From Yuukianura sp. NJ FZ-2021 (lineage: Eukaryota), in contig CM102285.1 of NCBI GenBank assembly GCA_046563655.1, positions 8,680,001-8,744,000 of the forward strand: DNA of 64,000 nucleotides. Direction: 5' to 3'. The position numbers were made by a program, and so were the translations under genes. The first letter of the stretch is position 1. The number at the start of each line of letters is the position of its first letter. Below the pieces are notes generated by a model. That model saw nothing but the letters and a program-made list of their open reading frames with translations, was not told the origin of the DNA and made no database searches. Positions 26,551 through 64,000 of the stretch are shown in pieces.

Positions 26551-29466
26551 TTAGAAGGGGAGGGTTGAGGAGAACATGGCTTCTATAACCTGCAAATTAA
26601 AAAATTTTAAAGTGAAACTCAAAAAACTAACGAAAATACTAAGCAAAGCTCTAGATTCAGTTAAAACAGAGCAGTAATTAGTTTACTTACCGGTGGGGCA
26701 GGGATGAGATCTTCTAGTTTTAGGTAAAATATTCTTTGAAGCCCTTGGACGCTCAAACTTCGGAGTTCTGGCAATTTTGCCAAAATTCGAGAAAAATAAT
26801 GTGGTTTTCGCTGGGCATCTACATTGTACGTGACATGATCTCTGAGGGAACTGATGATCTTCATCTGGATCTGTTCTACTTTTACAGGTTCTTGTAAATT
26901 ATGACGATCTAGACAACATGAAAAGAATCGTAAAAATTCAATTCAATTGATTTTGGATTGTTTTTATAGGAGGTGAATGACGGAAGCTTACCGGTGACTA
27001 AAGTGAGAGCCTCAAGGCAAGCCATCGCGGACAAATCCAGGTCAATATTGTGGAGTGAAATGCTGAATTCTGCAATTGCGTCAAACCATTCGCCAAAGAC
27101 TGGGCGACATTGCTCGCGGTGAAGGATTGTGCCGTTGCAGAAGGTTAGCGCCATATCATTTGGTTGAATTCTAAAGTTGCAACGAAAATTTTGGATTCAG
27201 TTTCGGCGTAAACTTTATGTAGGTAGTAGTAATGGAAGTATTTTGACAACGAGGCCGAGCGTTTACCTGTACGCAAGTCTGAGTATAAAAAGTTCCAGAG
27301 ATCCACTTTGGAGTAGAAGATCTTGATCATGTCGCGACAGTTCCTGGAATCCTGGAATTTTTTCTGCAAATGCTCGAATGACCTCGAAGCACGAGGTCAA
27401 GAGTCGGAAGAAATGCTCAATATGCTGAGGGTGATGGACGATTGACTCACTGTCTGTTGGATAATCTCGCTCATTGAATGGAGGTTCTTGGTACTGGAAT
27501 AATTAAGGCTTCAATCAAGCACTGTCCTTATAAGTGTCTATTCAGAGTAATCTAATTAATTTTCTTTGCATTTACCATGCTGCAGTCCTTGTTCTGTGCA
27601 TCTGGACTGCTGTCCAAGTGAGCTCGTACAAGAGCCGTGAGACATGACACTGGAGGTGACGGTGGGGCTGAACCGGCCATGCCCATGTGATCCCGTGGTT
27701 TCGAAGGCAGGCGACCTCGTCTACCTTTAAGTGAATCTGTCCGGACGACTTCTCGGACCATGCCGACCTTGAGTAAGAAAGAATTCAAAATTAAGCTGAC
27801 GAAGGCCGTGTTTGTACGAAAATTCTAATTTGTTGTTGTTTTGTAGAACACTTACTGCCAAGCATTTTTGGAATCGGCAAAACTGGCAACGATTGCGTCT
27901 TCGCTTGTCCACTGGACAATTTCGACTGGCCATACAGACATATTTCGCTCCCCTTTGTACTGTGCGTTTGAAAAATCCTTTGCAACCTTCACAAGTCACA
28001 ACCTAAGGATAGAAAAAAAAATTAAATGCAAATTGTTTTTGTTTTCAGATATTGGAATACATGATTGCAAAGCTGCACTTACCCCATAATGCTGACAAGC
28101 TGCAGTGTCGCCACAAACAGCACATAGTTTCCCACTCGTAGGAGACGATGTGCCCTGAGTATGCGCTTGTTGGCTACCAGAAGCTTCTGCTGGAGCCCTT
28201 CCAGCCGGTGATTGCGGTTTCGCCGAGGAGGACGGGGTTTCGCTTCCACTTGCCACGGAACTCGGAGAATCGCAAATGGATCGCTTTCTTGTAAATCCTT
28301 CTTGAATAGTTTCGCTTCCGGATAGAATTCTGGAAAATTCAATGAAGGTAAATTTATGATGGAAAGGTTCATCCGTGAAACAAATTTTGCAAAAATGAAA
28401 TCTCAATTTTTTGCTTTTTTAAAATTTTTACCTCATTGTTTCAGCCAAGCGAGCCGCTCGGGATGTCGAAGGTTGCTGAGACAATGGAGTTGAAGATCGG
28501 GAATCAGAACGTGCTGTATGCGGCGACGAGGTCATCATTTCGAATGGTGGTGACGGAGGATAGAAGATGGAGGAATGCGGTTGATGGGAATGGTATGACA
28601 GAGTACTACTTCCGGTGGGACTCATTTCCTCTTGACCTAGCGTCTGGTAGGCATGGAGCGGAGTTGGTGGGGCGGAGGTCGTTGAGGTCATCTGATGATG
28701 GTAGGGCGACACCGCCGATTCATCAAAGCTGAAAACATCTCTTCTGTAGCGTGGACTATAGGTTTCTTGGAAGCTGGGCAGAGGGGTAGCAGATCCAGAT
28801 CCACCCTCCTCCATGGACATGGAGCTGGCCAAGGAAGTGGAATCGAGGAGGAAGCAGGACGTGGACGCTGATGCTTCAGCGGCGGCGGGAACTGTCGAGG
28901 GTGGTTCAACTGCTGCGAAGGGTTTGCGTTCATTGCTACTGGAATTGCTATTACTGTTTTCGTCCATGAAAAGCGGATTGGCAGTGTACTGTTGAAGATG
29001 AACGCCGGGAAATGTTTGGGAGTGGGCGTAGTCGACGGGGTAGGAGGCGAAGGGCAAGCAGGGAGAATTTACGTGTCCGTTCCCAGCGACACTGGAATTG
29101 CTAAAGAGGAAATCAGTGTCTGAACTGTGCAGAACCGACTCCGCATCTACCAAGGCCTCCAGGAATCCAGGCAATTCTGCAAATCCCGACAGAGACACCT
29201 ACGAAAAGTTTCAAGAGTGTTAGCTCGTCAGTATTTGTTTGGAATGTTGTGAATGATGCTAAGATTCTATATTTTTCGAATTGAAAATCCTAAAATATTT
29301 CGCTTTGAAATAGTTGTGGGATTCGTTAGAATTTGTTGGGTGTTATTCTGTGCTTCATACTCAGGGAAGGTACAGTAAATTCAGCAATTGAAGTTAAGCT
29401 AAAAGCTACCAATGACAAGTTTTGTTGACCTAGGTCAAGGCTTACTTGGGGCTGAAGGAGAAGCAT
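26551..29466 (-). CDS. Hr38: Nuclear receptor HR38 (NR4A/Nur77 family)
   Basis: Exons 29466-29446 (MLLLQPQ), 29198-28432, 28329-28083, 28002-27856, 27767-27576, 27493-27267, 27170-26992, 26908-26691, 26589-26551. [54 protein letters not shown]4A-specific [18 protein letters not shown], and LBD ending [28 protein letters not shown]. Confidence 0.96.
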
Positions 29467-33208: not shown

Positions 33209-36200
33209 AAAATCGAATCAAAGAAAGTCGTTAATGATTAAAGCATGTAGATTTCGTAGAGTTCTTTTCCGGGTGGTATGGTTCCCAATATAGAAGTGCT
33301 GTTCCCTCGCTGAATGGCGAGACTGATGCGTTGAAATAGGAAGGAACTTGCTCGATTGTCACCAGTGGCTTCTGAGAGGCGATGTCCAATTGAATTGAGT
33401 AGACGTAACCCTTCTTCTCCGTAAACTCCAGTTGTCTCGACTGCGATGATGGAAACAAAAAATCGACAATCAAGGTCACGGTAGATGTCATGTTTTTGGA
33501 TTTCAGCTAAGGCGGCAGGATGACCACGGCATGAAGATGATGTTGGTAGGTAAGACGCGGCAAATGTATCACGACAGGTGAAATCCCACGCAAGGCATCG
33601 ACCGGACTTCCAAGGGACTAGAGTAACGCCATCCGGTCTCTTGCCGTCAGTTCTGGAACAACCGGAGGGTTCTTTGATGCAAGGGATGCCTGCTGTCCGA
33701 AGAGATCTGGAGATAATGTCGTTCACTGAAGCATGTCTTGATTGTCTGCCTGCGCTTCTGGTGCAGCTTAAGCCATGCAACCCATCACTCGAAACTGAAA
33801 CTCCGCAAGGGCAGCGATGTGGTTGACAAATTTCAGTTCCTAAGCGGACAGCACAGGATATTCGGAAGTGTTCGTCGGCTAGGAGCGTTCCCAGTGGGGA
33901 GGATGGAATAGCATGTAGCCAATCACCAGAGTGAGGGGCACAAACAGCGAGCAGACGGGCCTTGTCAGTCAGATTGGAGGAGTTTTGGACCAATTGAGAG
34001 TAAATTTGATTGAAGAGCTGCATTTCCCATCGTTTTTGAATTTTGCCGTCTATTGGTGTTTGGAACCCCATTTCGGACCAATTGAGAGAAGCGATATCCA
34101 TGGAGGCGTCAAAAGGTGACAGATGAGATGGTATAAAGGTAGAGATTAATTCGGCACAACTATTGACTGAGGCCAAAAACGAAAAAGTAGCACTGTCAAC
34201 GGCATGACGAATACCTAAACCCCCTTGATTCACCGGCAATGAAGACTGGGACCAGGCTTCTTCAGTCAAATTTGAATTGAGGATAGATTCCAATACGTTG
34301 CGTAAAGATGAGTCGTATGCTGAAAGAAGGTCAGTTTCCAGGAATGATGGAGAACATCTGAGGAAATATAATAGTCTTGGAGTTGATATTGATGCCCGAA
34401 GTAGGAAGAACGCTATATGGGCAGGAAGAGACGACAGTTTTGAGGATAGTGACTTGAAATCTTCTGTCTTCGATTTGAGAATACGTCGTGAAGAATCTCT
34501 GAAAAGAGGGGCACCCAAGAGTTCCGCTTGCTCCTTCTCAGGAAACATAAAGTCAGGATAAATTGAGTGGAAGGCGTCGGAGATCAAAGTTTTTTCTGTC
34601 GTATCAGCAGCTAGAATAATTACTTCACATTTCTTCATGTTTAGATGTAATCCAAATGAAGAGGCATTAGATTGGATCATTTTGAGATTTTCCAGTACAA
34701 TGTCAGGAGAGTCAGCGATAGTTGCGTCATCTAAGTACCATGAATTCAATTCTGTAGTTAAAGATGAGGCTAGTGGATGAACGGTTAAGGCGAAAAGCGC
34801 AGGTCCCAGTGGGTCACCTTGTTGGATGCCTAACTTTGATTTGATACAGTTGGAATGGTGGAACAGGTCTGTTTCGATGGAATAAGCTTGAGAGACGAAA
34901 TTAAAGAAATCTGGGAGATGGTATTTGACAGTTTTCAGCATCTGGTCTCTTCGGATGAGATTGAAGGCATTTCGAAAATCCATCTTCACGAGAACTTTGG
35001 GCGAGGAGTGATTGGCGTTGCAGTAGATTCTGACGGCATGGGCGACAGCTTCAGCTCCGTTCTTGACGCCGACACCTACTTGAATTGGACTCAACACGGA
35101 CGTGATAACGTTCATCGAGCGAGCAAGGATTAGTTTTGAAACAAGACGTCTCCATGTGAGGCCGATAGCAATTGGCCGTATGCCACCTTTCTTCTTCTGG
35201 ATCGCAATTAGTGAAGCACCAAAGAAAACAGGTCGGATGTCATCAGGGAGAGATCCGTTCGTGATGAGATTGCACAACTTCGAAATGGAGGACAGGAGTG
35301 CTACCCCTGCATCACCGGAGGACTTCGACGTAAGCTCTTTGAGAACCTGAGGACGAAGAGAGTCAAGGCCACCGGAAGATCCGTTTGGAAATGAAGAGAT
35401 AGATCTTAGGATGTCACAGTCTTCGAAGATGATTTCTCTCGGAGGTGGTGGATCCGGAAGGATGATAGGCAGAGGGTGATCTGGGTGTAGCTGGGTGAGG
35501 GCGTCAATAGTAGAGGAGTCATCTGGGGCGAGACAGTCGTCAGAGCAAAGAAGACGAATGGATCCACGAATGTCACCGTCGGCCAGTTTAGATTGCACTA
35601 GTTTGGAGCAATTCCAGTGTAGCGATGATGGAGCGTAACGTGGAAGGTTATGGTTTGAAGCAAGGTTGAATGAGTTTTTTGAAGAGAAGTTTGTGAAGCG
35701 GCCAACATTTTCCTTTACCCATTTGGTCAGATTCGGTTTAGATTTGTCTTCTTTTTTCGGAAGATGGAGTGCAGCATAAGGGAAGAAGAGAAGCGTTTCC
35801 CATGATTCCGAGGAGTTCTGGACAACGACTTGTTCTATGACGGCGGAGAGTGTGGATGCCACAACTTGTCTAGCTCCCTTGGGGATGTGTTTGAGAATTT
35901 GAATTGATTTTTTCAAAAGTGCGAGTCGTGAGCCAATGGTAAGATCTGCAGATGATGATTCAGCAGTGGGGTCCGAAAATGCAATTCCAAGATACGATTG
36001 TTCAATGTGTTTCCGTCCGCTCGCCCTTGTTTTGGTGATGTTTGGAAATATCTTCAAAAGTTTTGAACCCATGGTTGTGTCAGCTAGTGGTTTGATATGA
36101 ATTGATGCACAAAAGCGTTGGTATTTGTCTTTAAATTCCTGCTTCTTCATCAAACCATTGGAGACAAGGCGAATATTGTTAGAGATCCAGTCGTCACTTA

Positions 36201-36875
36201 GTTTGGAAATTTCAGATTTGCTTAGAGGCTCGGAAGAAGTACGATTGGAGAACGTCTGAAGTCTGCGTGAATCGTCAATTCCCAGTCCGCAGTCATCTGA
36301 TGATGACCCGACTCGGGGAATCTCCACGATTGGCGTGTCAATAATCGATGTTTCTGGGTCGTTTTGAAGGACATTGGGATCAGACGAACAGTCAAAAGTA
36401 AAGTTGGTTTGAGAGTTTTCTTGAAAGTTCGGATGAATGTTTGAATTGAGGCTTTCCATTCTCTCACTTGTTGTTGTCAAGGTAATGTGAATGATAATTG
36501 TGAATTCGGAATTTTTCGATGAAAAATTAGTGAAAGCCCAATGTTGTCCAGGAGATAAGCAATTGATGAATTGTTTGTTTGAGTTATGATGTGTTGGAGA
36601 GCGAATTTTGGAGTCAGAATTTCAGGACTTTGGATGACGAAAGTGGGCCAGTTGACAAGTGTCCGGTTGTAAAATGCATGTAGAAGCACATCAAAGGATG
36701 CGCGACAATGAGATGAACAATCTGATATAAAAATGATGGACTTTTGCACTAAATTCACTCAAAAAACAATCAAAAACTCGGGAGCGACTTTTTGCGTGTC
36801 GCCAAAAAAGATGACTTTTAAAGTGTTTGATTATTTTTTAACAAAAAAAAAAAAATAAAAAAAAAAAATCGAATC
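33209..36875 (-). mobile_element. Apparently full-length non-LTR retrotransposon, RLE-type (CRE-clade-like), including its target-site duplications
   Basis: Single uninterrupted ORF. Direct repeat AAAATCGAATC at 33209-33219 and 36865-36875. A13-T-A tract at 36843-36864. Visibly more GC-rich than the flanks. Confidence 0.88.
33238..36480 (-). CDS. Retrotransposon polyprotein: winged-helix (RFX-like) + reverse transcriptase + CCHC knuckle + PD-(D/E)xK restriction-like endonuclease
   Basis: 1080-aa intronless ORF (track start is TTG; first ATG at 36459). RT motifs GSSGGLDSLRP, KKKGGIRPIAIG, DFRNAFN, GIQQGDPLGPALF and WYLDD. Then CPCG..HGLSC, RHASVND, KRPDG.TLVPW..G..LAWD, and FQRISLAIQRGN, typical of CRE-like elements. 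Confidence 0.93.
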   Translation of the reverse strand: MTTTSERMESLNSNIHPNFQENSQTNFTFDCSSDPNVLQNDPETSIIDTPIVEIPRVGSSSDDCGLGIDDSRRLQTFSNRTSSEPLSKSEISKLSDDWISNNIRLVSNGLMKKQEFKDKYQRFCASIHIKPLADTTMGSKLLKIFPNITKTRASGRKHIEQSYLGIAFSDPTAESSSADLTIGSRLALLKKSIQILKHIPKGARQVVASTLSAVIEQVVVQNSSESWETLLFFPYAALHLPKKEDKSKPNLTKWVKENVGRFTNFSSKNSFNLASNHNLPRYAPSSLHWNCSKLVQSKLADGDIRGSIRLLCSDDCLAPDDSSTIDALTQLHPDHPLPIILPDPPPPREIIFEDCDILRSISSFPNGSSGGLDSLRPQVLKELTSKSSGDAGVALLSSISKLCNLITNGSLPDDIRPVFFGASLIAIQKKKGGIRPIAIGLTWRRLVSKLILARSMNVITSVLSPIQVGVGVKNGAEAVAHAVRIYCNANHSSPKVLVKMDFRNAFNLIRRDQMLKTVKYHLPDFFNFVSQAYSIETDLFHHSNCIKSKLGIQQGDPLGPALFALTVHPLASSLTTELNSWYLDDATIADSPDIVLENLKMIQSNASSFGLHLNMKKCEVIILAADTTEKTLISDAFHSIYPDFMFPEKEQAELLGAPLFRDSSRRILKSKTEDFKSLSSKLSSLPAHIAFFLLRASISTPRLLYFLRCSPSFLETDLLSAYDSSLRNVLESILNSNLTEEAWSQSSLPVNQGGLGIRHAVDSATFSFLASVNSCAELISTFIPSHLSPFDASMDIASLNWSEMGFQTPIDGKIQKRWEMQLFNQIYSQLVQNSSNLTDKARLLAVCAPHSGDWLHAIPSSPLGTLLADEHFRISCAVRLGTEICQPHRCPCGVSVSSDGLHGLSCTRSAGRQSRHASVNDIISRSLRTAGIPCIKEPSGCSRTDGKRPDGVTLVPWKSGRCLAWDFTCRDTFAASYLPTSSSCRGHPAALAEIQKHDIYRDLDCRFFVSIIAVETTGVYGEEGLRLLNSIGHRLSEATGDNRASSFLFQRISLAIQRGNSTSILGTIPPGKELYEIYML

Positions 36876-38501: not shown

Positions 38502-41500
38502 TTAGGAATTGTTATTGTTCCGGCGATGCATGTCATGTCCATGCGGAGGTGGCGGAGGGGGGCCTAAATCCGGGTCACGCTGATTCGGATCTAACCATGC
38601 AGAACGTCGACTTGGTTGAATCACGTATAATTCATCTTCATCATTAACGAATCCCTGAAAAATGAAGACATTTCGAGCATGAAATTATGAAAATTTTCCA
38701 TTTTTGATTTGAAAAATTTCAACAGCGACAATTTTACCTGATTAGTAAAGTCAATATTTGTGACTTTAGGTTTAGGAGCCTTTCCTCTGGTACGTGACTG
38801 AACTGAGGTCACGGGTGCATGCTGTCCATTCCCTACACCAGGAGGAGGGGGACCCTTGAGGGTCTCCATTTGTGACTTTTTACGTTCAGCATGAGAAGTT
38901 CTACGTTCCAGTACATTACTACGACGTTCCTTCAAGGCTTGGAAGGTCACTTGAAAATTATCACCACCAAAAAGTCTTGCTTGTTTGTCCGGGGCTGGAA
39001 ATAGAACAAAGTGTGCCGTTGTTCATTAAAATTTGCCAAAAATAAGTTCATTCATAGTTGTTCTTTCATAACCACACTTACAATTGAGTATTTCTTTGAA
39101 TCGACGCTCAAATGCCACGTCCAGCGTCCCAACTTGCTTTCTCGCGTTCTTCTGTTTCTCAAGAGCGTGAATTGTTTTCCTTCGAGCAACGTCACCAGGT
39201 ACAATGTGCCGCCCATTGTCACTGTCACCTGTTGCCAAACAAATGGAAATGTCACATTAGGAACACAAACAAAAACTACGACGTAGAAATGAAAGTGCTT
39301 TCTATCATTCTCTTAAGGTCATTCATACATTAGCAAAAGCTTACCATCAAAGTTCTTCAGCTTTTGGAATCTACGTATGAGTCGTACTCCATCACGATCC
39401 ACTGCAGCATCGGTTGTGGTTATAACATCAGCTTCTTTTCCAAAGCTTGTTACTTCGGTTGCAGCAAGGATATGCGACAGTGTTCCAAAACGATGAAACA
39501 GCATAGCCATAAACTGAATGATAAGAATGAGGGCAAAGAATCCAACGAAAACTAAACCAATTGGTTCCAATTGCAAATATTCCTTGGTAATATAAAGCTA
39601 GAAACAGAAAAACAGCAATCAAATTCGCTTCTTCACCAATGTACTTTAGTAATTCTAAAAAATTTCACTTTACATCGCCATTGTCCGTGAGTGTCACGTT
39701 AGTCTTGATTCCAAATGGCCACTTGATGTGTAGCTGCTCTTTGTTCAATTGCATCAAAAACACTATAATTATGAAGATGGCATTGATCATCATGAAGAAG
39801 AACACGGAACGGTCACGGAGTTCGCGCAGTCCTTGAGCAATTACAGCCTGTTAGGATACAACAAATGGCGAGAGCAGGACACATACAAGAAAAATAAACA
39901 ACAACAACACATTAGATGCACAATAAAGCCAGAGTGTTAATAGTTTAATTGAAACATTTTGCTTACCTCTTTCTTAGCATCAGCGTTAATTGGTGCTAAA
40001 TACTTTTCAATCAGATCCTTCCAGAACGTAATTTCAGTTCCGTTGAGAAAATCAACCACCCCTCCTTTCAAGTCCTTATCGTTAATCCAGAACGGATTTA
40101 TCAAATCGTTTCGATCATTCCGTGTTTCAGATGAAGAACTTCCAGCGTCCTCATCCTCATCTTTGTGTTCCACTTCTCCAGACTTGTGGTCAGTTACGGC
40201 AGTACCGGAGTGGTCCGCACCACGCGGTGACATAAGCATAGACGGAACTGCTGTCGATTTCTTTCTTCCTGCGACAGGCATGTCCAACGTTCTGAAAACA
40301 CGGAAAGAGGACTTTACAAATCTATTCCAAACAATACTGTTGATCGTCATTACTTTTCAATTGAATCCAAGCGACTTCCAACTTCAGACAAAGAGTCTGC
40401 GATACGAAGTAGCTGCTGACGTTCATCAATAGTTTTGGGTTGAGTACAGCACATGATTTTGAATAGTCCAGCAAATGAAAACTCCAGTGACCCCTCAGTG
40501 TCATCCGCATTCTTCCCAGGAAGGAATCCTAGAAAACCGCCTTTCTTGGCATTCTTCTTCGCTTCCTCCGCCTTTTTCTTTTCAGCTTCCAGTTCCTGTT
40601 TCAAAAAATACCGTTAACTGCATTGCTGTCACTATTTTGTGATTTGATTATGATTTGTGTGTATTGCAGAACTTGATATGAGAATATTTATGTCGTACCT
40701 GCTTAGATTTTTTGGTAGCCACTTCTCGAGTACCCCAAGAGACGACATTGAGATTGATGAGAGAGTAAATAATCAAAAGCAAGTACATGGACGGAATTAG
40801 CAGCAAGTACAGCAATCCAGGAACGATGCACCAGAATTCTTGCGGATGAAGTAGCGCTGCTATAAAGAACGATCCGGATAACGATATCAAGAAAATGGCC
40901 GAAGGTGAACCGATCCCGTCCTCTCCCAACTGCAAAGCGGTACCAACCAGGACGGCCATCATAACCAGTGCGTAACCCGTCGACAGTATTTGAGCCACCA
41001 GCAGCTATAAAAACAATGCGTGAATTAGTACAAAAATTCCACCTACAACATTGTTGACAAAACAGGAAATGTACTTGAAAGTTGGACTTGAAGCAGAAGC
41101 AGACGATGATGAAGATTGAAATGGGAATGATATTCCAGTAAAAGCTGGTCCAATTGTCAATTCGAAATGCAGCCACGAACGCACCCACCAACATAAGAAA
41201 AATAGTTCCTGGACCCAGGATCGTTCCACCCATCAACATGATTTGGTACATGATATAGGGCATAGAAATGTCCGGATTGACTTTGATTGTCCTCTTATAG
41301 TCCATCAACAGATCCATGATGTTGGCCATTGTAGATGGAACCCATCGACGACGCTGATTATAAAATTCGTTGAATCCCTCTGGGCAGTGCGTTTTGGCGT
41401 CACTTGCAGCTGAATATTCGACACGGTAACCTCGTTGAAGCAGTAAAGTACACAACCAACGATCTTCGCCCTGATCGTATTGAACGTAGTGTCGTGGTTC

Positions 41501-44500
41501 GTCAGATCGAGTTGTGTATTTGGCCATGACGTTGTCGTCCATCAGGGCTTTTCCACGGAAAAGAGAGAAGCATCCGGGAGAACAAAGTACGCAACCAATC
41601 ATGTGCTCGGTGGCTTTTTGGAGCCAATGACCAATGGCGTATTCGAACATTTGATACCACATCATAGGCCCTGAGAAAAGAAAAAATACAAAATTAAGCT
41701 GAAATTCTAACTTGTGACAATCAAAATTAGGTTCTCTCTTACCGCTTCCAATCGGATGAATTCGTCCGCAAGCAGCTCCGAGATTCTTGTTTTTCTTCAT
41801 TAAATCTACAAGGAGTTCGACAGCATTTGGATGAAAGTCAATGTCACCGTCAAGTGTCAGCAAGTAAGTGTTTTCTGCGATCGTTTCCTTCCTAGAAACT
41901 GGAATGCTCAACTCCATAAGCCGATGTCCCAGAAGGTAGTACATGTACATCACTTGACTCCATCTCTTTCTGTGACGGATCTTGTCCTTATCCTTCAAGT
42001 GGGCAATCATCTTTGTTTTCCCAGGCAAAATCCATTCTAGGCGACCACCGTACGGAGTCGGAATTTTCTTCGGCGGACGAATACGAACTTGCGTTTCATG
42101 GACACGGCAAGCAGCTTCCTCAATGATTTCCACCATTAATTTGACAAAGGGATTCACAATAACTGGTGAGTTTTCTTCTCCTTCATCTCTCAGTTCAAAT
42201 GCATCATCAAAAAAGATGTGAGCTACAAAATGTAAATTAAAAATTAATTTGTTATTCGAATCCTCATGTAATTTGTTTGGCACTTACTCTCAAATTCGTA
42301 ATATCCAGGATCCACTACTGCAAAATACTTAAGAGCCACCCGTCGAGCACATTGATCTTCATCCATGCGAAAAATACTTTTGAGCATTTCCATCATTTCA
42401 TCCTTCGTTTCGTGCCACATTGTGGCGCAGGCGTAAATCCTTGGAATCGTATCAGTCTTGAATTTATTTTCAGTTGAGCCCTTGTGTGACGACGTGTCAA
42501 TGGATCGAATTTCTTCATAATCCGTATCCGCTGCTTCCTGTTCCACCTCATCCGTTCGAATGTCATTGTCATCTTCTCGCTTTCGGTTGAGTGCCAATGA
42601 CTGATCAATCAGCATGGCGTTGTACATGGGAGTAACGAAAAGGCGTTCGGTACTGGCCAAACGCTCGCATTTTGGAGTCCAAATATGGAGGGCTATCCAG
42701 GTCTGAGAAAGCAGCCACAACAACCATATCCAACCATACTAAAAAAAATGAAAATTCAACAGTTAATCCAATGAAATTGAAAAATATAAGTTTAAATTGA
42801 GCATGTCAAAGCTAACCTCTTTGCCAATGAATCCAGAAATGAATTCTCCTTTGGGGCATGACCAAAAGATGTACTGCGGAAGATGTGCTTCCCAAAAGCA
42901 AGGACTTTCAGATCGTAGACCGCAGAGGGAGATTAGCAGAGACAAGGTGACCGGAACGGCTAAACTCACTGGGAAGGCAAAACTGAATCCTTGGATGCAA
43001 ATCTTACAAGCGAATTTTCCAAAGATGTAGCAAATGTACGCCGCCAGAATTTGGATAAACAGGGTATGTCGAACAGCAGTTGGAAAAGAGTTTTCATGGA
43101 TAATTTCTTCCAGAAAACCTTGACCCGGAATGTCTGGCGACGTTCCAGCACCAAATATTGAACGGACCTGCGCCAAAAAGTGTTATGTTTAATCAAACCC
43201 AGTGCATAGAACTAGAATGCTGGAAAACTTTGTTACCTCTGTAATATTGATAGGATGGGTTGAAAACGAAGATGTGAAGTGGCTAAAAGTATTTCCCGTG
43301 CTGTATCCAAGGAGCCAGACGGAAAACATCATCGAAACGAAAAATACAAGCATTTTCCACAGAGAAATGAAAACGTAGGTGAAATAACGCGTTTGAATAA
43401 GAACTTTGCGCATATCTCCAAGTTTGCGAATAAAGCCATAAGGTGAAGAACTGTCTACAAAGTTTTCCCACCAACCGCACGATATGAGAAATGCGGAAAC
43501 GGGAAGTAACCATCCACGACCTTTGGGTTCTGTCAAAATTGGCCACAGAAATAAACCTGACACTTGGAAAAGAATTGCCAAAGTGTCAATTGAGCACTGG
43601 ATGATCCACTTCCCTCGGCCATCTTTGTTTGGATGGCGACTCAGCATTCCTATAGATAAAATCACCATGAAATGACGCAGAGCTCGAACTTTAAAACGTT
43701 TGAGCAACTGTCTATCGTTTTTCTTACCAAAAATAGCTGGAACTAGACAGACGCAGTTAGTGAGCATGATTCCTTTGACTACATCGACAGACGGAAGAAC
43801 AGCGAACACGAATAGTGCGAGCCCAACTACATGGCAAGTCTAGAAATACCGTAACAATATTAGTATAACCCTTGGCGCGTATTTTCAAATTGAAAAAGAT
43901 ATGAACGCCTATGATTTATAAAAATACCTCAAAGAAGAAGGGAATGAAGAATTGCAGGGTCGAAGGTCGGCGACAGGACTTGAAAACGCAAATTCGGAGA
44001 GCTCTGATGAAACTCCCTACTTCGGGTACCATAAATGCAAACATAATGGCCCATGTCCAAGAGACTCTCTCCACCTCTGAGATAGACGCTTCAAAGGTTT
44101 TGTCTCGACCTAAAACAGAGATCATTTGTTCAGCATCAATACAAAACAGAAACAATGGATTAGATTTATTAGGGGCAGGCTTCTGCTTAACACTTTAGAC
44201 AACTTCTGTAAAAAGATATTCATCAGGAATTGACCAATTGACGTCTGAGGCTCCATAAATCTTACCATACTTCCTATTGCAAATAGGAACTTTTCGTTGT
44301 GGTTCCAACTGGGAGGTCATGAGAAGGAGACTTGCCTTGGCAAAGACTGCCCCACCCAAAACGACCAGAAAAGTGACAATGTAGGCCAGGATCTGGAACA
44401 ATGGTAAAAATCAAGGATACAGTCACATGTCACAATTAGCAAATGAGTGTTTAGTCTAAGGTCACATCGTGTCCGATTGTTAAAAAAGTGATTTACTTTG

Positions 44501-49723: not shown

Positions 49724-52700
49724 TTATACCTTATCGCCTCCAGCGTTGGTGTTCGGATTCTTCAACTTTCGAAACTCCTTTGTCGCCCACATGGCAAGCA
49801 TTTTAGTCTTGTTGGCTTTCGAGCGTCGTCCCAGCGTCAACAGCTCGTTTATGATTTCATTGTCCACAAGAGGTAAGATCCGTGTCCCATATCCCAGAAT
49901 GAGATCACTGGAAGTCAACAAAAATCCACATTTGTATACATTGGAAATGTAAGTTATGAAGACAGTAATGGCTGAAAACTTACCCAACGAGTCCTGCGCA
50001 GGCCGCAACGTTTCCATCACTTCGCTCAGGGTCTTTCCCAATTTCACAAATGAATTGAAATATATACGGTAGGTGCGACTCAATCTGAGCCAGCTCGAGT
50101 GTCACTGGGCCATTAGGTACTCCAGACCCTGCTTGAGTGTCTCCACGTAACCCTTGAATAATTCCAGTGTAAGCTTCAAGGACTCCTTCACGAAGTTCGC
50201 AAAGGTAGTCCAACATTTCATAGTCGTTCTGCAAAAACGAAAGTTGCGTCAGGATGACATAAGGGTTAAGAACAACGAAATACAAATGAAACAGCGTGTT
50301 ACCCTGTCAACTTGGGCCTGAGATGCTTGCATCAATGTTTGCAGTACGACGTCCAAGTACTGCCGAAATTCGGGCCCAATAGCCAGCGCCACATCTCCCA
50401 AGACAGACAAAATCTGAGGCTTCACTTCTCGCTGAACTTGTTGATGCTGAAACGGAAACAACACAACCGTTTCAGGTTAAGCGTAGTATCCTAGTATTCT
50501 AAAACGCGACTAATCTCTTTTACAAGATTTTCAGTATGAAATTGGTGGTTTCATTGGTTATCGTCATTCTTTTTCAAGAGTAGCAAATAAAAATTCATCA
50601 TGAAAAGCACTCCTTGCTTACTCGCCTGATATCTTTTAAGTTTTACTGTAAAAACTTACGGATAAGTTTTGCAGTAGGTGATTCATGATGTCAGGACAAT
50701 AAGGCGCCACCTTGGAACCCAACGCTCTGCAAATATCTCCGCTGAGTCCTACTGCTGCCGAGCAGACCTGTAATTTTGAATTATGTAATTGTTAGAATTT
50801 TACTATGCTTATGTTTCATGTAACGTTGTCGAGGCGTTGGTACTTACAGAGTGCTCGCTAATATTCTGAAGGGCCGCGATCAGATACGGTATAAATGAAT
50901 CCATATATTTTAAAAATCCGTCACCCATCACTTCAGTCAATGTTGAAATAGCCATTAGGGCATCTTCCTGTACACCGCCAGATTTTCCTCCAGGACCACT
51001 GAGCATTTGAAGTAAGGCTTCCATAACTGCGTCCGAGATTTGAGGAGCATCCGCAGGAGTAACTAAATCAGAAATAAGAAGTGAAGTTGAGTAATAAAAT
51101 TTACATTATTAATAATTATTATTAATAATGTAAACGTCAAAACTACGACAATCACACCTTTGCGGAGCACACTTTGGAGTGTAGCACAGAGGGAGCTTTG
51201 GAGTTCGTTGAATTGACTTCTATCTCCTGGATTGTGATGAGACTCCATCAGCAGAACTGCTCTAAGTCTCTCTAAAATCACTAGTGTAGTATTCTGTACA
51301 GTATCGTAACAATCCTTTGGTGAATTCTTGATCATCTCCATTAGAGCTTCATATGCCGCTGGACGCAAATTGGCCTAAATTAATAACGAAAAAGTCTGAC
51401 CTAAAGCACTGATGCCAATAAAAGTTAAATCATGTGTAAGTCCAAGTCCACTCACCGTTGCCCCATCAACTCTGTCAGTCGTAGCCAAAAGCTTTTCCAC
51501 AATAGGTCTGAAGAAGCCGGAAAGGCAGTAGGTTTCAGGTTCCTTAGAGTCGTCGTGTCTTTGCTCAGCAGCTTGCTCGTAAGCGGCTTCAGCTAGGCTA
51601 CTGAGGGCCCAACAAGCATTGGCAGCGACACGGGCTTCACCGATGAGTCCCCTGACGAGAGCATCAAGAAGGGGATGTAAGTAGGCAGGAGACAATGCCG
51701 CATCGGAGACAACCTCACAAATTCTGCCAAGAGTCCACGCCGTTGTGTCCCTCACGACCACGCTTTCGTCTTTCATAAGTTCAATCAGAGTCGGCATCGC
51801 GGCTTCTGCAATTGGCTTCATTGTGCCTGGATCAGGACCTGTTACTCAATTCATGCAAACGATTAAAACATTACAAAAGGCAACTCGGTTTCAGGATGAT
51901 TACTGAGTTGAAGCAATTAAATCAGGGGTGAAATTGGTGGTTTCAATTTTTTGTCGTCATTCTCTTTCAAGAGTAGCAAATAAAGTCATCATATACGCAC
52001 TGAAATTAGTAAATCGAATTCTACATGTGTCTCACTCACCTTCCATGATACAACCGAAGGACATAACCGCAGCATCTCTGTATTTCCAATCCGGATTTGT
52101 AATATTTTGTTGAACGAAGGGCATGACGTGAGGAATGATATCAGTTTCACAGCAATTAGCAAACAGCATAAGACAAACACCGGCGGCTTTACAAGGCTTC
52201 CAATCATCATCGTCATCATGTGGATCCTATTTAGAAAAAGAATGGGATTAGAAACAGAACATCAACTCCCATATTTGAATTAGTATTTTAATAATAATTT
52301 CTCTGGAATTGGGATGCATTCTTTACTTGTTTCGTCAAAGCATCAATGAGGAGAGGAACTAAATATTGGAGTGCGCCCTTCGCATAAAATCTGGAAGTAC
52401 GCTGTGGAGGACGTCCCATCTCCTGAGCCTCAGAAGCCTCAATCGCCAGATCGACTTCTTCATCACAAACATTGGACCAAAACTCAATTCCTTGCAGCGC
52501 CACTTCATCTTCATCAGATTTCATTGCTGCCATTGTAATGGCAAACAACGCTTGATTCATATAAAACTCCATGTGCTGGTAGTATAGGGTCATGATTTTG
52601 ACTAAACACTGTAACGCTGCCACCTGAACTTGAATGTCGGGAACCTGTGTTGCCTCACAAACAACTTGCATGATGTAGTGGCGTTCGGTCTGTGGAGGTT

Positions 52701-54023
52701 GAAAACAAAAACACATCAAAACTGAAACTTAAAACTAAATATTCTTCAATCTTCCTTTTAAAGGCACTCTTACCTCATTTTCAAAATTGTTTTTGGTAAA
52801 CTCGAGTGAATTTAGAAGTGCATTAGTTGCAGCGAGTCTGACACGATTCGATGGTTCGTCACGTTTCATTCCGTGTACAATGGCCGTAAGAATGCTGTTG
52901 CTTTGATGCTCCAGAATTTCAGGTTCCTGAAATGAGTAAGATACAAATGCCGCTAAGGAAAGAGTATTGATAAAGTTGTAAGGAAAATTCTCTTCTATAT
53001 ATTTTCAGTTGCGAATTTGGTGGATTCTAGGTCTTTTCGTCATTCTTTAAATCAAGAGTAGCAAATAACAATCATCATGTCATTTCGGAATAACTAACAG
53101 CTAGATTTGGAACTACTACTTACAATGTCAGCACAGATGTATCCAATGGCTTCTAGTGAAGCTTCCCTAAGATGTACAGCATTAGGATCGTTGGCTCCAG
53201 TTAAATTCGCCACAAGGACGGGAATCACTTCCTGCCATTGCTGCTGCGGCAGTTCCACGACGGCAATGTAGGCAACACATTGTGCAGCAGAACCGGGGCG
53301 GGAAGTTTCCGTTCCGAGTGCAGACAAGACCTGCAATAGGAGTTGGAATCGTTAAAAACAGCTCATTCTATTCTCTAAATGCCTACTGAAAGTATTATCA
53401 TTCAAGTATTCGTACATTCTTTTTAACGTAGTTGCGGATTTCTTCGTTCAAAGACAACCACCTGAGTTTGTATTGACTTTTCACATTGGCATCTTTCGAA
53501 GTAAGAAGATTCTTTAGTTGAAGTCCAGCAGCCATTCGAGCCACTTGTGTATACTCCGGACGTGCCAAAAGTTCCGACAAACTTCGAATGTACTCGGGGA
53601 AATTTGAGAGCGCTGCTTGCTCCAGAAACGCCTGTGCTTGTGTAAGTTCATGTTGATCTGAAAAGATTTAAAAATATAAATTCTCAAGTTTAGATTGGAA
53701 GGCTAGTTTAGTTTAGAATCTAAACTTTAGATTATAAACTAGTCTCCGAAGTTTTAACAGTTTTAAAAGCCTTTTCACATCAACCACATAACGCCGGGAG
53801 TGTTCTACTAGGCTACAAACTTTGGATAAAAAAGAAGAGAACAAAAAATAACAGCATAACCCTATCAAAACACAAGCAGCAGCTCTGTTGAACGTAATAG
53901 TCAAGTTACAGTTATTCAACAACGTCAAAGGTCAAAGTTATCGAACATCTTACCTTGTGAGATTGTTTTCTCGAGAATATTAGCAATTTGTCCAACGGAA
54001 CCTCCATCCACTGGTTGGTTCAT
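49724..54023 (-). CDS. KPNB1: Importin subunit beta-1 (karyopherin beta 1)
   Basis: ATG at 54023, first exon 54023-53954, stop at 49724-49726. Conserved segments [115 protein letters not shown] and WATKE. Confidence 0.96.
50527..50606 (-). ncRNA. SNORD76: Intronic box C/D snoRNA, SNORD76/U24 family (copy 1)
   Basis: Minus strand reads ATGATGA (C box, 50601-50595), TTTATTTGCTACTC, TTGA (D'), TGACGA (C'), AAACCACCAA, CTGA (D, 50534-50531). Lies in a KPNB1 intron, sense to the host. The guide is complementary to the conserved 28S sequence AGUAGCAAAUA. Confidence 0.85.
51919..51996 (-). ncRNA. SNORD76: Intronic box C/D snoRNA, SNORD76/U24 family (copy 2)
   Basis: C box ATGATGA 51992-51986, guide TTTATTTGCTACTC-TTGA, C' TGACGA, AAACCACCAA, D box CTGA 51925-51922. 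Lies in a different KPNB1 intron. Confidence 0.85.
53001..53082 (-). ncRNA. SNORD76: Intronic box C/D snoRNA, SNORD76/U24 family (copy 3)
   Basis: C box ATGATGA 53078-53072, guide TTATTTGCTACTC-TTGA, C' TGACGA, CCACCAA, D box CTGA 53008-53005. Lies in a third KPNB1 intron. Confidence 0.83.
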
Positions 54024-58528: not shown

Positions 58529-61500
58529 TTAGTTGTCGCCTGATTGATCGGAATTTCGCATTTTACTTACAGCGTCTTCTAATCGACTTCGGCTGGCGGC
58601 TGCCGCTGACCGCCTCGTCGTTCGTCCAGTCTCTCTTGGTGGGTTTGGATCTTCTTTGGCAAGTCGCTCCTTCTTCTTTACCATGAGTAGTTGTCGCTCT
58701 GCAGCAGTCAAACCGCCTCGCGGTGCGTCAACAAGAAGTGACGAACGGTCCCTCACCCGTCGTTCTCTTCTCGTCTCCATTTTCTGCTGGGCCATCTCCT
58801 TTTCCAATTCTTTGCTTTCTGTGAACAACAACAAACATTGTTAGCAAATATTCTAACAATTGAATTAACTTCAAAATTATGAGCAGGAAATCACCTTTCA
58901 AAACAACTCGTTCTGCATTTTCACTCGGTGAGTCTTCATCTGGTAAATCGTCAGCATGATTTCCCATAAGGCTTTTCATGCTCTCATCATCAGAGTCTTC
59001 CGGATTCGGGGTAGCTAGCACTGGCGTCGCCTGACTTGGTCCAGGTTGAGGTGGCAATGTGGATGTCGCTGACGACGGACTATGTTTTCCTCTCTGATTT
59101 CCCTTCTCCGCTTGTCCTTCCTTCTTCAGTAACGAAGGAATATTTAGGCCAGCGAGTCCAGCCAAACCTAGAGACGATGCAGCACTAGCTTTTCCTCCTT
59201 TCTTGCTACCTCCGCTACTTGATCCCATTGTTGCTCCCATTCCATTTGGCATTGTAGTCGAGCCCATGTTTCCAAAGGAGCTCGGATTCATTCCACCCCC
59301 AAGTGGAAACGAACCGAGTCCCAGCGGATTGTACATTAGACCGGGATTTGGAAACAAAAATGGTAGTGCACTGGAAAGCATATTCTGTGACGCCAGAGCT
59401 GCCGAAGAAGAAGAGTTTCCTTTTTGCTTCTTGTCCTCCTTCTTTCCAGTAGAACTTGCTGGCTGAGCACCTCCAGTAGTGGAGTGCCCTTCTTTACTCG
59501 GCTTTTCTCCCATTTCCATTCCTGGAAACGGAAATCCAAACAGAGAGCTCGGCAGTCCAAGGCTGCTTAGATTTCCCAAGGATCCCAGACTTCCAAGAGA
59601 ACTTAAGTTGCCGAGTCCACCCAGTGAACCTAAACCTCCGAATGGCATAAACAGTGGATTCTTCGGATCCAGTGACCCCAAGGGCAAACTGGCTAAAAGG
59701 TTTGGATTTAGTCCAGACAGGCCTAAAACAAAACACAGACGATTTAGAAAATATGTAACCAATGTATATCCCAGCACTCGAAAAGATTGAGAAAGAACTT
59801 CACCTGGAATTGATGAAAACGCTCCAAGAGACGAGTAAGCATTTGCTGCGGAAGTAGGAATGGAAGGAGAACTAGCTGTTGAAGTATTTATCGGCTGGGT
59901 GCTTAGCATCGGTGGTCTACCAGGTCCTTTCTTCTTTTCAACGCTTCCTGCACTTGTGCTTGGCAGCGTGACACCTCCTGGAACTCTTCTTTGTAACTCC
60001 GATGGCAAATTCCCTTTTTCTCGTACTAAGTCAGACCACCTCGGATCTACATCGAATGCTGGGTTCTCACTCAACCAATGTCCCAAGTGCTTCAACTGTG
60101 GTGCTTTCGGGCCAGTTACCTGCAGCAACAATAAAACACAAGCTTGGGTTAATCACAGTTACGTAATTAATTCAGCTAAACCAAAACCATCCCTACCTTC
60201 TTCCCCGTAATACGATTAATCACCGTTACATTTTCTTCGCCGCTTAATTTGCTCCAGTCCAACAGCATCGGGTCAACTCTGGGTCTCCGTCGCCGTCGTC
60301 CATCTAAGAGTTCCGGGCTCACTGGTCTCTCTGGCGTAAGATTGGCATGTTCTGCTAACCATTTGTTCACTTTGGCGTCTTGTGAAAACAGGTCGAATTT
60401 CGGAACAGCCAATTCAGCTAATCGACTGAAATCGCATTTCGGCATTTCGGAAATTGGTGATGGGCCTGGAAGATTTGCTTTTTGGTGTCCTTCCTTCCCT
60501 TTGCTTATTGTGGCGGATGCTGCTTGACCGGCTAGTTGACGAGAGAATTCTTTCCCTGCGGCCGAATTAAACAAAGACAGCGTCGCGCTCAGGAGAGAAT
60601 TGTTGAACATGTTGGCTTGCGAAGAGGCTATATCCTTTGCGTTTTGATGGGCTGCCGCTGCAGCAGAAGCAGCAGCCGAGATATTCATCGGCGGAGACTG
60701 AAGTCTGTTAGTACTGGCGCCACTGCTAGCGGGAGAAGATCCCCTTGTTCCACGGGCTGGTGGTGGAGAAAATAATGAAGATTGCCCCTTCGATGCAGAG
60801 AGACCCAGTACTATTTCGTCCAGCTTTTTCCGTCGCTTTTCCTTCTCCACTGGCATCGGAGCCGTTTCAGCGTCATCTCCAAGCTGTAATCAAATAGGAA
60901 ATTTTTTATTCGTTCCCCATTTAAAATTTATCACCCTGGCTGTAACTCAAACGATTTAACAAAGACAAGCATTCGTAAAATAGTGTCGGACTCAATCCTT
61001 AGAAAAATAAAACTAGCATCACTTACGGTGCGTTTTCGCAATTTGTCCAACATGTCCTCGAGTTTGGACTGTTTTGGTCGTTCAGAAGGTTGAGGTTCAG
61101 GAGTAGGTTCTCGCCGTTTCTCTGCCATTATAATCGCTTGCGGAGTCGCCCGACCTTGGTCTCTTCCACCACGTTCTCGCTCTCTCCTCGAGTTTGATAC
61201 CCTATAAACACGAAAGTAACCGACATTGATTTACATAATAGAGCTGCTAAGTTCTTTAGTAATTGGTATCTTAGTTGCATTACCTTGTAGAAGACAAATC
61301 CAGTGCAGAATTGTTGTTATTGTTATTACTATTATTGCCGCTTGGAGACTGCAGTGTCACAGGGGTAACTGTCACGCTGCTCAAGGAGGATAATGCTGAC
61401 ATTGCCGCAGCCGCAATGCTATTTCTGTCACTTGGTTTAAAACTCAAGTCTAAAGTTGAGCCCTGAGACTGTTGTTGCGATTGCAGTTGTGGCGAGTACC

Positions 61501-64000
61501 TTGGAGATGGTGATTGCCGATGATGCTGCTGCTGTTGCTGTTGTTGTTGCTGCTGCTGCTTCTGGTGAGAACTTCGAAGAAGTGAAGATGTAATGGCCGT
61601 GTGATGTTGATGTGCCGGCGGTGGTTGGAATTTGGAGTGCTGTGTCCTAGCTGGTGGTGTTTCACCTTCTGACGAATCTTCCTTTTCTCCTTGTTGTGGT
61701 GTTGGAGCCGAATTGTTGCTGTTATTGTTGGTTCCCCGGAGGGAGCTCAGTCTCTGCATTTGTGGAAGTAGATTTGAGTTATGCAGACCGTGATTTAGGA
61801 GAGCTTGTAACTTTGCTCTTTCGGTTTCCACATCTATTGCAATTCGTCTCCTACGTCCACGCCTTCCTGGTACGTTAGCTGGTGCGGCAGAAGTAGCGGC
61901 CGGTGGAAGCGTCATGATAAGATCTTCGGGTGGTGCAAGATCCGAGCATTCCGAAATAGGTGTTGGAGTATCTCTTGCTGGAGTTGCAGCATCCGGAGTT
62001 CCCTGTGGTGTGTATTCGAACATATCAGCAAGTCCTGCTGATGTAAAGAACCGGGATACTGGCCACTCCCCTTTCTCGACAGCATGTACAACGTGCTCCA
62101 GACGTATTTGAACAGCTCTGTCCCTTGGCCATCGAATTGGATTCATTTGGTTCATCAAATTTCCTAATGCTTCGAGATTATCTCCAGAGAGATTCTCTGG
62201 GTTGAGTAAAAGTTTCATCTGTTGAAGCGTGATCTCATCTTGTGCGAAGTGTACAGGAGGTGGTGGGGCTGGTGGTTCTGGAACTGAAAACTTCGGAGAT
62301 CCTTTTACTTGCACCTCAACCTTCTTCATCTTCTCCGCCGGTAACTTAATTGTAATTTTAAATTCATCCTTGATTTCAACTTGGACTTCGTTTAGTTCTG
62401 AACCACTTGACTTTGTAGACTCTTCATCATCTCGTTTTCCTTTGATAGAGTAATCTGCCGGTGACTTGGCAGAACCCATTGAGTCTTGATCAAGTTTTCG
62501 TCTCTTGGAGCTGGGTTCATGTTCATCAAGTTCCTCCTTGACCCCATTACCTTTCTCCTGCTTGACAATTTTCAAATCTTCAACGTCTGGCTTCAACTCC
62601 TGCGAATTGTTGCCATCTTGCTCTTCCTCTGTTTCCATTTTCTGTTCTACCTCAGTTTGCTGTCTCGCGGTGTCAGTGGATTCCTCCTCAGTTTTATCAA
62701 TCGGTTCCTTCTTGATAACAATTTCTGACTCAGTTTGCTCAACCGAAGCAGCATCAACTGCCTGTGAAGTATTGCGACTCTCTGAATCTTCCTCCATTTT
62801 CTGTTCATCTTTCACGGTAGACGTCTCTTTCTCTTCTTCTTCTGTTTCTTTCCTCTCAGCGTTGGCTTTAGCTTCATTTTCATCAGCTTCCTTTTGTCTC
62901 TTCTGATCTGCTCTTTCTTGTTTGATGTCCTTAATTTCAATATCGACCATATCTCTCTTTCCTCCATCTTTTGACTTCTTTTCTGATTTTTTGTTCTTTT
63001 CGCCTGGATCCACAAGCGGTTCACCGGCAATATGACGACGAAGTATCTCACGAAACGAAAGCTCAGGATCGTTCAGGTAAAAAACATCCGTTCTTCCTAG
63101 TCCATGTCTAAGGTAGACAACACAACGTTATACAATACAATTCCTACAATATCTACCACCATTTTATACAATGTCTTACCTAGCAGCACCATACAGCAGA
63201 TCCTTGTCATGTTTTCCTGGAATCCACCAATCAGGCATATCCAATGATGGTTGACATAACTTCAGCTTCTCATCCAATTGTGGATGGAAGATAATTTCTT
63301 CCCGAATTTTGTTCAGTAAATCAATTCTTTCCAAAGTACGCCGTGCTCTTTCTTCTGTAACTGGTTCTACTGGTACTTGGATCAAATCTGAAACAAAAAG
63401 GAATTGAACATATAACAAAAAATTCATTATTTATCTGTCACTTTTAAATTCATCATTTTCAAAGTGAGCGTGAAGGCACATGACAAATAGGAAAAGACTT
63501 GGACAAGACATGACAGCGATGACAAGAATAACCACTTACCAAACTCTGGAATTCCCAATGTAAGCGATGTGTTTAGTAATTGTGTTTTAAAGCAAAATTT
63601 ACAAAAAGGTTTTAATTAAAAAAGACATATGGAAAGAATGTGACAACGTACCTTCCTCCTCTGTCAATTTCTTTCCGGAAATTCGTTTGCACATGGCGTA
63701 AAAAGCTCGGTAGTATTCCGTTAGAGTCTCATCAAACTTCTTATCCAGCCGAGAAATGGCTCGAAACTTAGACCAATCGTACCGCTTCTCTTTCCTGTGC
63801 AAGAAAACACAGAAATTACATTCAGAGTACTTTACAATTTCCTCAACACAATCGTCGCAAAAACATACCTGCTGTATTGTACTCCATAGGAAGAAACTGT
63901 TCTGAAGAAATCTGCTTCCTCTTTTTTCGACCATCTCTTCTGGTAAACTTCCAATTTCTGCTTTTCTCTCTCACGTACGATTTGATCAATTTTCTCCTTG
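58529..64000 (-). CDS. kis: Chromodomain helicase kismet / CHD7-family, 3' portion (gene continues beyond the window)
   Basis: Exons encode ..[82 protein letters not shown], and a BRK domain ([43 protein letters not shown]). Stop at 58529-58531. Confidence 0.92.
61523..61560 (-). repeat. Coding CAG/CAA repeat (polyglutamine tract in kismet)
   Basis: (tgc/tgt)n on the + strand encodes a run of about 12 Gln (HQKQQQ..QHH). Confidence 0.85.

Follow-up and report, generated by a model that had tools for sequence, protein, structure and literature searches.

The window analysed here, a stretch of 64,000 nucleotides from Yuukianura sp. NJ FZ-2021 (assembly GCA_046563655.1, contig CM102285.1, positions 8,680,001 to 8,744,000; coordinates below count from its first letter), contains a retrotransposon without long terminal repeats (non-LTR) of the restriction-like endonuclease (RLE) type, R2 group. 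Its protein carries an RFX-type winged-helix DNA-binding domain at the position where sister elements have a C2H2 zinc finger. We are nearly certain of the architecture, the homology of its parts, the location of the winged helix within the mobile unit, the recent insertion and the C2H2 finger at the same position in relatives. The reading as a whole, an autonomous and recently active R2-like RLE retrotransposon with just one open reading frame (ORF) and the winged helix as its DNA- or chromatin-binding head, we regard as probable. For the function of the winged helix as such a head, taken by itself, we lean towards acceptance by analogy with R2.

The enzymatic core of the protein places the element. 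Pfam recognised the reverse transcriptase (RT) as RVT_1 (aa 420-649, E 3e-19), and in an alignment of 76 sequences D577 and D578 of the YLDD motif were invariant. The same was true of C883, H895 and C899 of the CCHC knuckle, with C885 nearly so, and of the endonuclease residues H909, N913, E930, P931, D943 and D959, with K989 nearly so. The zebra-finch R2 protein (R2Tg) aligned with a family profile as a single match running from the RT to the C-terminal end (profile positions 214-897, E 1.8e-27), a region that spans the CCHC knuckle as well as the endonuclease motifs RHN, KEP, PD and D. A model of the full-length protein, built with the 76-sequence alignment, reached a mean predicted local distance difference test (pLDDT) of 88.9 and a predicted TM-score (pTM) of 0.83. 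R2 proteins took the first seven places among the Foldseek matches of this model (E-values from 3e-22 to 1e-16); they come from zebra finch, silkworm and a turtle. Human L1 ORF2p, Prp8 and group II intron RTs followed. VIA-align of the whole model gave Z 30 with 664 aligned residues for L1 ORF2p and Z 22-23 with about 700-729 for R2, scores that on a multi-domain model do not rank kinship. The structural alignments to L1 ORF2p and R2 included the N-terminal extension of the RT from about residue 181-216 on. Thus, the element is an RLE-type non-LTR retrotransposon of the R2 group. An earlier sequence-only reading of this DNA had called it an RLE retrotransposon, and both the R2 profile alignment through RT, knuckle and endonuclease and the seven R2 proteins at the top of the Foldseek list bear this out.

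Ahead of the core lies the winged helix. Pfam RFX_DNA_binding matched aa 90-160 over profile positions 6-76 of 79 with 27.7 bits (E 4.3e-6), the curated cutoff of the family being 27 bits. The sole significant match of the isolated region to PDB sequences was human RFX5 (8zjr_M; E 1.1e-6, 31.8 bits, 28% identity, 85 residues aligned), while RFX1 yielded no phmmer match at E <= 10. Residues 75-180 were folded by AlphaFold with ten relatives as the alignment, and the model (pLDDT 81.3) displayed the helix-strand-helix-helix-hairpin order of a winged helix. Foldseek returned two matches at E <= 0.001, RFX5 with a TM-score on the target of 0.91 (root-mean-square deviation (rmsd) 1.4 Å, 28% identity) and the RFX1 DNA-binding domain (DBD) from its co-crystal with the X-box, 1dp7, with a TM-score of 0.87 (rmsd 1.5 Å, 14% identity). 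The next matches, Cdc6/Orc1 and PadR, were found at E > 0.1. By these comparisons RFX5 is nearer to the window's domain than RFX1 is.

The domain recurs in relatives of the element. Nine of 39 relatives scanned exceeded the Pfam cutoff for RFX, with P0019 (79.6 bits) and P0004 (69.8 bits) scoring best (P numbers are those of our protein set). P0002 was the tenth relative with a match, at 18.9 bits. A further 41 relatives showed no RFX domain at E <= 0.001 in the Pfam scan. A hidden Markov model (HMM) built from the family's own RFX domains and run over 136 proteins detected the domain in 13 RT-bearing proteins (P0001-P0006, P0008-P0010, P0012, P0018, P0019 and P0135); its match on the window protein covers aa 80-168 with 101 bits. 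W91, F138 and P139 are kept in all 13 and R145, G158 and I159 in 12 of them. Within this set the mean pairwise identity rose from 29% in the winged helix through 45% in the N-terminal extension and 50% in the RT to 59% in the knuckle plus RLE. Judged by these identities the winged helix is the fastest-evolving part of the protein.

No other N-terminal DNA-binding module was detected. The Pfam scan of the whole 1073-aa protein at E <= 10 reported two families, RVT_1 and RFX_DNA_binding; it found no zinc-finger or Myb family and no apurinic/apyrimidinic endonuclease (APE), and the element has a single ORF. A C2H2-like regular expression had no match in the 184 residues that precede the conserved core. 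When the PHD-bearing N-termini of ten relatives were used in tblastn, no PHD remnant came up, either within the window copy or upstream of it. In the full-length model pLDDT was below 50 at residues 1-68 and 71-74, disorder being confined to residues 1-74. From the N-terminus the order of domains is a disordered region, the RFX winged helix, the RT extension, the RT, thumb and linker, the CCHC knuckle and the PD-(D/E)xK endonuclease. The sequence-only reading had proposed an RFX-type winged helix with no C2H2 finger before the RT. The former agrees with the Pfam score above cutoff, with RFX5 as the match by sequence and with RFX5 and RFX1 as the matches by fold; the latter agrees with the Pfam scan and the regular expression. 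It had also suggested a profile search of aa 90-175 and a structural comparison with the RFX1 DBD, which returned RFX_DNA_binding and the RFX1 fold with the values given above. The peptide it quoted was located at residues 90-159 of the ORF; its numbering of about 96-168 was too high by about 7, as 35977..36195 encodes aa 89-161.

The boundaries of the element were read from contigs of four public runs aligned to window positions 31000-39000. Record 10 of run X2, a contig of 2238 nt with the same organism label, is an empty site. Its letters 1-882 align with 32335-33219 and its letters 885-2238 with 36878-38244; the 3645-bp insertion is missing between the joined flanks, and the 11-mer that is duplicated in the window is present once. 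On the far side 27 letters and 19 gap positions differ from the window in 1367 bases; thus the contig comes from another haplotype or individual of the same organism label. Because the insertion is bounded by a target-site duplication (TSD) and is missing from the empty-site contig, the RFX winged helix belongs to the mobile unit. The survival of the empty site together with the 11-bp TSD shows that the insertion is recent, and the TSD indicates staggered cuts at insertion.

Many other contigs with 85-99% likeness cover parts of the element including the RFX-coding part, so the same read sets also contain related copies; the contigs do not add up to a copy number. Contigs from other copies lose the match to the window at 33221-33238, and one of these has the first 11 nt after the stop codon in common with the window and a similar TTTCTT end, and then continues into a different flank. 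These data support a true 3' end of the element with a 3' untranslated region (UTR) of 18 nt and no poly(A). A structured RNA at this end was not apparent, the last 250 nt folding no better than shuffles (z +1.25; 181 of 200 shuffles were at least as good). Inside the 64-kb window there are no repeats of at least 40 bp, and tblastn of the protein against the window found the element itself only.

How the winged helix relates to the zinc finger of R2-like elements was addressed with the relatives. A word-indexed protein search yielded 154 relatives at E <= 0.001, the best 120 of which were listed; among the matches listed the named relatives are mostly from the springtail Folsomia candida. The RFX architecture is found in 13 proteins with 40-52% best-local identity to the window protein. 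In a FastTree tree of 122 core sequences, from which the N-terminal columns were excluded, all 13 RFX-bearing proteins fell into one clade of 26 rows with an SH-like support of 99. An IQ-TREE quick run on 40 rows recovered this clade with an SH-aLRT of 99. Of the other 13 rows of the clade, 11 are too short at the N-terminus to judge, with 0-68 residues before the core. The remaining two, P0014 with 205 and P0016 with 90 residues, carry a C2H2 finger just ahead of the core. Thus, RFX and C2H2 are positionally equivalent in this clade. The RFX label required three changes on the 40-row tree, at least two of them forced by starred branches, and therefore the N-terminal head was exchanged more than once in the clade.

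A PHD finger lies just upstream of RFX in 5 of the 13 RFX-bearing proteins (P0004, P0005, P0006, P0018 and P0135); the window copy and its nearest relatives P0002 and P0003 are without it. The sequence-only reading had placed the winged helix in the position of zinc fingers and had suggested capture by one lineage. The C2H2 fingers of the sister proteins P0014 and P0016 directly support this placement, and the capture fits the trees because all RFX-bearing proteins share one clade. What it missed was the PHD-RFX pairing of many relatives.

Outside the clade the accessory domains of relatives differ: moth and butterfly copies have C2H2, and others have PHD alone, SAP, OTU, ankyrin plus GTPase, or UCH protease at the C-terminus. 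Among the distant ones, P0044, P0080, P0088, P0025 and P0083 have UCH after the endonuclease, an N-terminal OTU protease, or ankyrin plus a Ras/Roc-like GTPase; the last of these combinations could be a fusion of gene models. A large sister group of mostly unnamed ENA/JGI proteins, which includes P0046, P0067, P0070, P0074, P0078, P0087, P0089, P0095 and P0108, has a conserved N-terminal CxxC...H.HGPR...C motif ahead of the RT. Pfam does not recognise this motif, which is probably another N-terminal zinc module. A metagenome search gave two partial loci (L001 and L002), neither with the RFX region, and the Protein Atlas gave unnamed RVT_1 clusters, all with scores below 0.9.

The origin of the winged helix was approached by an exhaustive HMMER search with the window's RFX domain over 1.84 billion representative proteins. 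There were 16 hits at E <= 0.001, and 15 of these were scanned with Pfam. In seven (P0122-P0128, 867-1089 aa) the strong Pfam matches are all RFX domains, four or five in tandem, and outside transposons these proteins match the winged helix of the window best. Three have RFX5_N plus RFX, one is a NACHT/Schlafen protein and the rest are transposon proteins or fragments. In a tree of the RFX domains only (89 columns) 13 of 14 transposon domains grouped together with a support of 93 on a branch that was not starred, and P0019 stood apart on a long branch. This tree is too weak to name a donor or to prove a single capture.

The site of insertion was inspected for targets of known RLE elements. Rfam had no match at the gathering score in the 64-kb window, so there is no 28S ribosomal DNA (rDNA), small nuclear RNA (snRNA) or spliced-leader (SL) RNA gene, and TRF reported no tandem repeat or microsatellite at the target besides the insertion's own A/T run. 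The 200 bp to each side of the pre-insertion site held no X-box-like motif or half-site, judged by a consensus of the motif. The insertion sits in unique, non-genic DNA between protein-coding genes. Thus, at this insertion targeting was not to a multicopy RNA gene, nor to rDNA, snRNA or repeats. Targeting may be loose, as far as one insertion site can tell.

From the biology of R2 we propose that the element moves through target-primed reverse transcription. Its protein would bind its own RNA, the RLE would nick one strand of the target and the RT would prime cDNA synthesis from the nick. The winged helix, paired with PHD in many relatives, would take the role of the N-terminal zinc fingers and Myb of R2; it would keep the ribonucleoprotein attached to DNA or chromatin next to the nick site and thereby bias where copies land. 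Sequence-specific recognition of an X-box by the winged helix is unlikely. More tentatively, and with rather less than even confidence, we suggest that an arthropod R2-like lineage swapped its zinc finger for a host-derived RFX domain, often together with a PHD histone reader, and kept jumping, that this module sets the landing site, and that RFX and C2H2 were exchanged at least twice in one clade.

Several points weigh against this proposal. DNA binding and an effect on target choice would follow by analogy, and one insertion site is readable. That this site has no X-box-like motif says little, being a single site judged by a consensus. The faster evolution of the winged helix, seen in the sequence identities, is compatible with diversifying specificity and with relaxed constraint. 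The Pfam RFX score of the window copy is just 0.7 bits over the cutoff, and its winged helix, which is on a long branch, could be drifting; given the high-scoring relatives, the borderline score by itself no longer leaves doubt about the family of the domain. The filled junction is spanned by none of the contigs listed, and the filled form rests on the window assembly. Finally, the 5' end resembles a plus-strand poly(A) beside an A-rich TSD. We take it as putative extra sequence of the 5' junction.

An alternative is that the winged helix, with PHD in the relatives, serves as a chromatin tether that docks on nucleosomes, a chromatin state or a host factor and gives region-biased insertion without sequence specificity. 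Chromodomains, which guide some LTR retrotransposons, are a parallel. The PHD finger upstream of RFX in 5 of 13 proteins is in line with a tether, as is the RFX5 chain that is the best match in sequence and structure, since 8zjr_M belongs to a nucleosome-bound complex, and so is the single insertion in unique DNA without an X-box-like motif. Yet the window copy, P0002 and P0003 lack the PHD finger and the element moved recently nonetheless. Furthermore, in the wing and helix 3 the residues of the RFX signature have been kept, as expected of a module that contacts DNA. On balance we consider a mainly tethering role unlikely.

It is still less probable that the winged helix serves the element's own expression or the assembly of the ribonucleoprotein, either by binding the DNA of its own 5' UTR as a promoter factor or by binding nucleic acid during cDNA synthesis. 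The 18-nt 3' UTR and the last 250 nt, which are not unusually structured, are circumstantial evidence for such a role; because of them RNA recognition must differ from the 3' UTR binding of R2. On the other hand, the domain is placed exactly where relatives have a C2H2 finger, and the N-terminal C2H2 finger of R2 binds target DNA. RFX domains are moreover known as binders of double-stranded DNA (title of 1dp7).

The 5' end raises the question of whether an L1-like element with an APE endonuclease made the insertion by retroposing an antisense polyadenylated transcript. The minus strand starts with a T-rich stretch (T8-A-T13 etc.), and TRF marks an A/T run at 36843-36868. Read on the plus strand, the end of the insertion at 36864 is A13-T-A8, which resembles a poly(A) tail and is directly followed by the A-rich TSD starting with AAAA. 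A contig of another copy in run X4, a run that has no cover over 34738-36072, stops matching the window at 36800, and the T-rich 64 nt may be extra 5' junction sequence of this copy. According to excerpts of PMC4640811, 5' junctions of RLE elements vary. The other copies, however, end at the same opposite terminus, 33221-33238, as a fixed 3' end of a sense RNA predicts, and the ORF is fully intact. Retroposition by an L1-like element is thus very improbable.

An artefact or a domesticated host gene, through read-through from a host RFX exon or co-option of a single-copy gene, might be suspected from the springtail homologues P0010 and P0012 that NCBI and UniProt name as RFX proteins, but it has next to no probability in view of one uninterrupted ORF in raw DNA, the same architecture in the 13 proteins at 40-52% best-local identity and related copies in the read sets, and at this locus it is ruled out by the empty site and the TSD, which put the RFX-coding part inside the insertion.

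The features of the insertion are collected in Table 1.

Table 1. Coordinates of the retrotransposon and of its parts in the window
Feature	Position	Strand	Evidence or remark
Whole retrotransposon insertion, 3645 bp	33220..36864	minus	empty-site contig and TSD
TSD, 5' copy, 11 bp, GATTCGATTTT on the minus strand	36865..36875		exact 11-mer
TSD, 3' copy, 11 bp	33209..33219		exact 11-mer at contig join
5' UTR, 405 nt	36460..36864	minus	sequence
T-rich stretch, first 64 nt of the 5' UTR, may be copy-specific	36801..36864	minus	sequence; break of X4 contig
Whole ORF, 1073 aa plus stop codon	33238..36459	minus	no internal stops
N-terminal region, aa 1-74	36238..36459	minus	predicted disorder; without PHD finger
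RFX-type winged-helix DNA-binding domain, aa ~81-161	35977..36219	minus	Pfam PF02257, RFX5 sequence match, fold match, family HMM
RT N-terminal extension including IPKGAR motif, aa 185-415	35215..35907	minus	kept across 76 relatives
RT, aa 420-649, YLDD at 575-578	34513..35202	minus	Pfam RVT_1
Thumb and linker, aa 650-875	33835..34512	minus	R2Tg profile alignment; pLDDT > 90
CCHC zinc knuckle, aa 883-899 (C883, C885, H895, C899)	33763..33813	minus	conservation; R2Tg knuckle alignment
Restriction-like PD-(D/E)xK endonuclease, aa 905-1010	33430..33747	minus	conservation; R2Tg RLE alignment
3' UTR, 18 nt, ends TTTCTTT, without poly(A)	33220..33237	minus	sequence; contig ends

In the neighbourhood, exons of a chitin synthase lie at 39937..43839 on the minus strand, about 3 kb from the insertion and on the same strand as the element. 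The fragment is 86% identical to the enzyme of Allacma fusca and 84% to that of Orchesella cincta, both springtails, and about 80% to those of insects. The host is a hexapod and probably belongs to the springtails. Long open frames at 51375..52728, 58728..63127 and 28428..29198, all on the minus strand, look like host exons; among them are a HEAT/importin-like piece, recognised by eye, and long low-complexity frames rich in Ser and Gln.

The closest known system is R2 (R2Bm and R2Tg; complexes of target-primed reverse transcription 8gh6, 9nl3 and 9dou). Like the window element it has a single ORF with an N-terminal DNA-binding module followed by the same order from RT to endonuclease. R2 differs in having one or more N-terminal C2H2 zinc fingers plus Myb in place of the RFX winged helix; the window element, in turn, lies outside 28S rDNA, has an 11-bp TSD and an 18-nt 3' UTR, and its structure-based identity to R2 is just about 15%.

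RLE elements comprise five clades; in contrast to the mostly target-specific CRE, R2, R4 and NeSL, HERO includes many families that insert without specificity (excerpts of PMC4640811). The window element is likewise of the RLE type and sits in unique, non-repetitive DNA; it is consistent with HERO on non-specific insertion behaviour alone. To our knowledge there is no description of a HERO element with an RFX domain. NeSL/Utopia elements have one to three N-terminal zinc fingers, some families with a Ulp1 protease or RNase H, and target spliced-leader or U2 snRNA genes; the same excerpts of PMC4640811 make no mention of RFX or PHD in them. They are RLE elements with variable accessory domains like the family described here, so gain of modules is a theme of the RLE group. 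The window element differs from them in having neither N-terminal zinc fingers nor a U2 snRNA or spliced-leader target. BLAG, a non-site-specific R2-like element of the German cockroach, shares with it the arthropod host, the RLE, the absence of Myb and non-specific insertion. Unlike the window element, BLAG has one or two C2H2 fingers and a 'Blag' motif, and in the excerpted text of PMC7650587 no RFX is reported for it; section 3.4 of that paper proposes recombination as the source of variation of the N-terminal module in BLAG.

With the RFX transcription factors (RFX5, 8zjr_M; RFX1, 1dp7_P) the window domain shares the fold and the sequence family PF02257, but it is fused to a retrotransposon enzyme and is without RFX dimerisation and activation regions and without RFX5_N. 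The sole pairing of RFX with a non-LTR element in the literature searched is a catfish L1-RFX5 fusion isoform (PMC12129022). As far as the excerpts of that paper go, it is the reverse case, in which an exon of L1 ORF1 origin was added to the RFX5 gene of the host, and the transposon encodes no RFX. Transposons are not mentioned in PMC10530576 on the evolution of RFX. The sequence-only reading knew of no description of such an element, and for non-LTR or RLE elements we likewise found none, whether of RFX or of a winged helix, in the literature searched, with Repbase Reports and Dfam outside the search. According to excerpts of PMC13580325, which cites it, Fell et al. 2025 is an inventory of RLE elements, mostly from arthropods, and it may contain members of this family. 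Taken together, the RFX-RT-RLE lineage with its PHD-RFX variants appears to be undescribed in print, while its proteins are already present, unrecognised, in public databases.

The last point has a practical side. P0010 and P0012 of Folsomia candida, which NCBI and UniProt name 'RFX-like transcription factor daf-19' and 'RFX-type winged-helix domain-containing protein', respectively, are full-length retrotransposon proteins of this family with RFX and RVT_1 in Pfam, and judged by these domains their names are likely misannotations. Because at least two springtail copies bear the names of RFX factors in public databases, catalogues of transcription factors of such genomes can be inflated by transposon proteins.

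R2-type proteins, which are under development as gene-insertion tools, are bound to one site through their N-terminal DNA-binding modules. Here the N-terminal module was exchanged in nature for an unrelated fold, while the RT-RLE core was kept (50-59% mean identity) and the element is still mobile. RFX-bearing and C2H2-bearing sister elements thus form matched pairs for studying the role of the N-terminal module in target choice. If the swapped module does set the landing site, nature would have carried out in this family a retargeting experiment on an R2-type enzyme by exchange of its DNA-binding head, and the engineering of such enzymes could start from it as a ready template.

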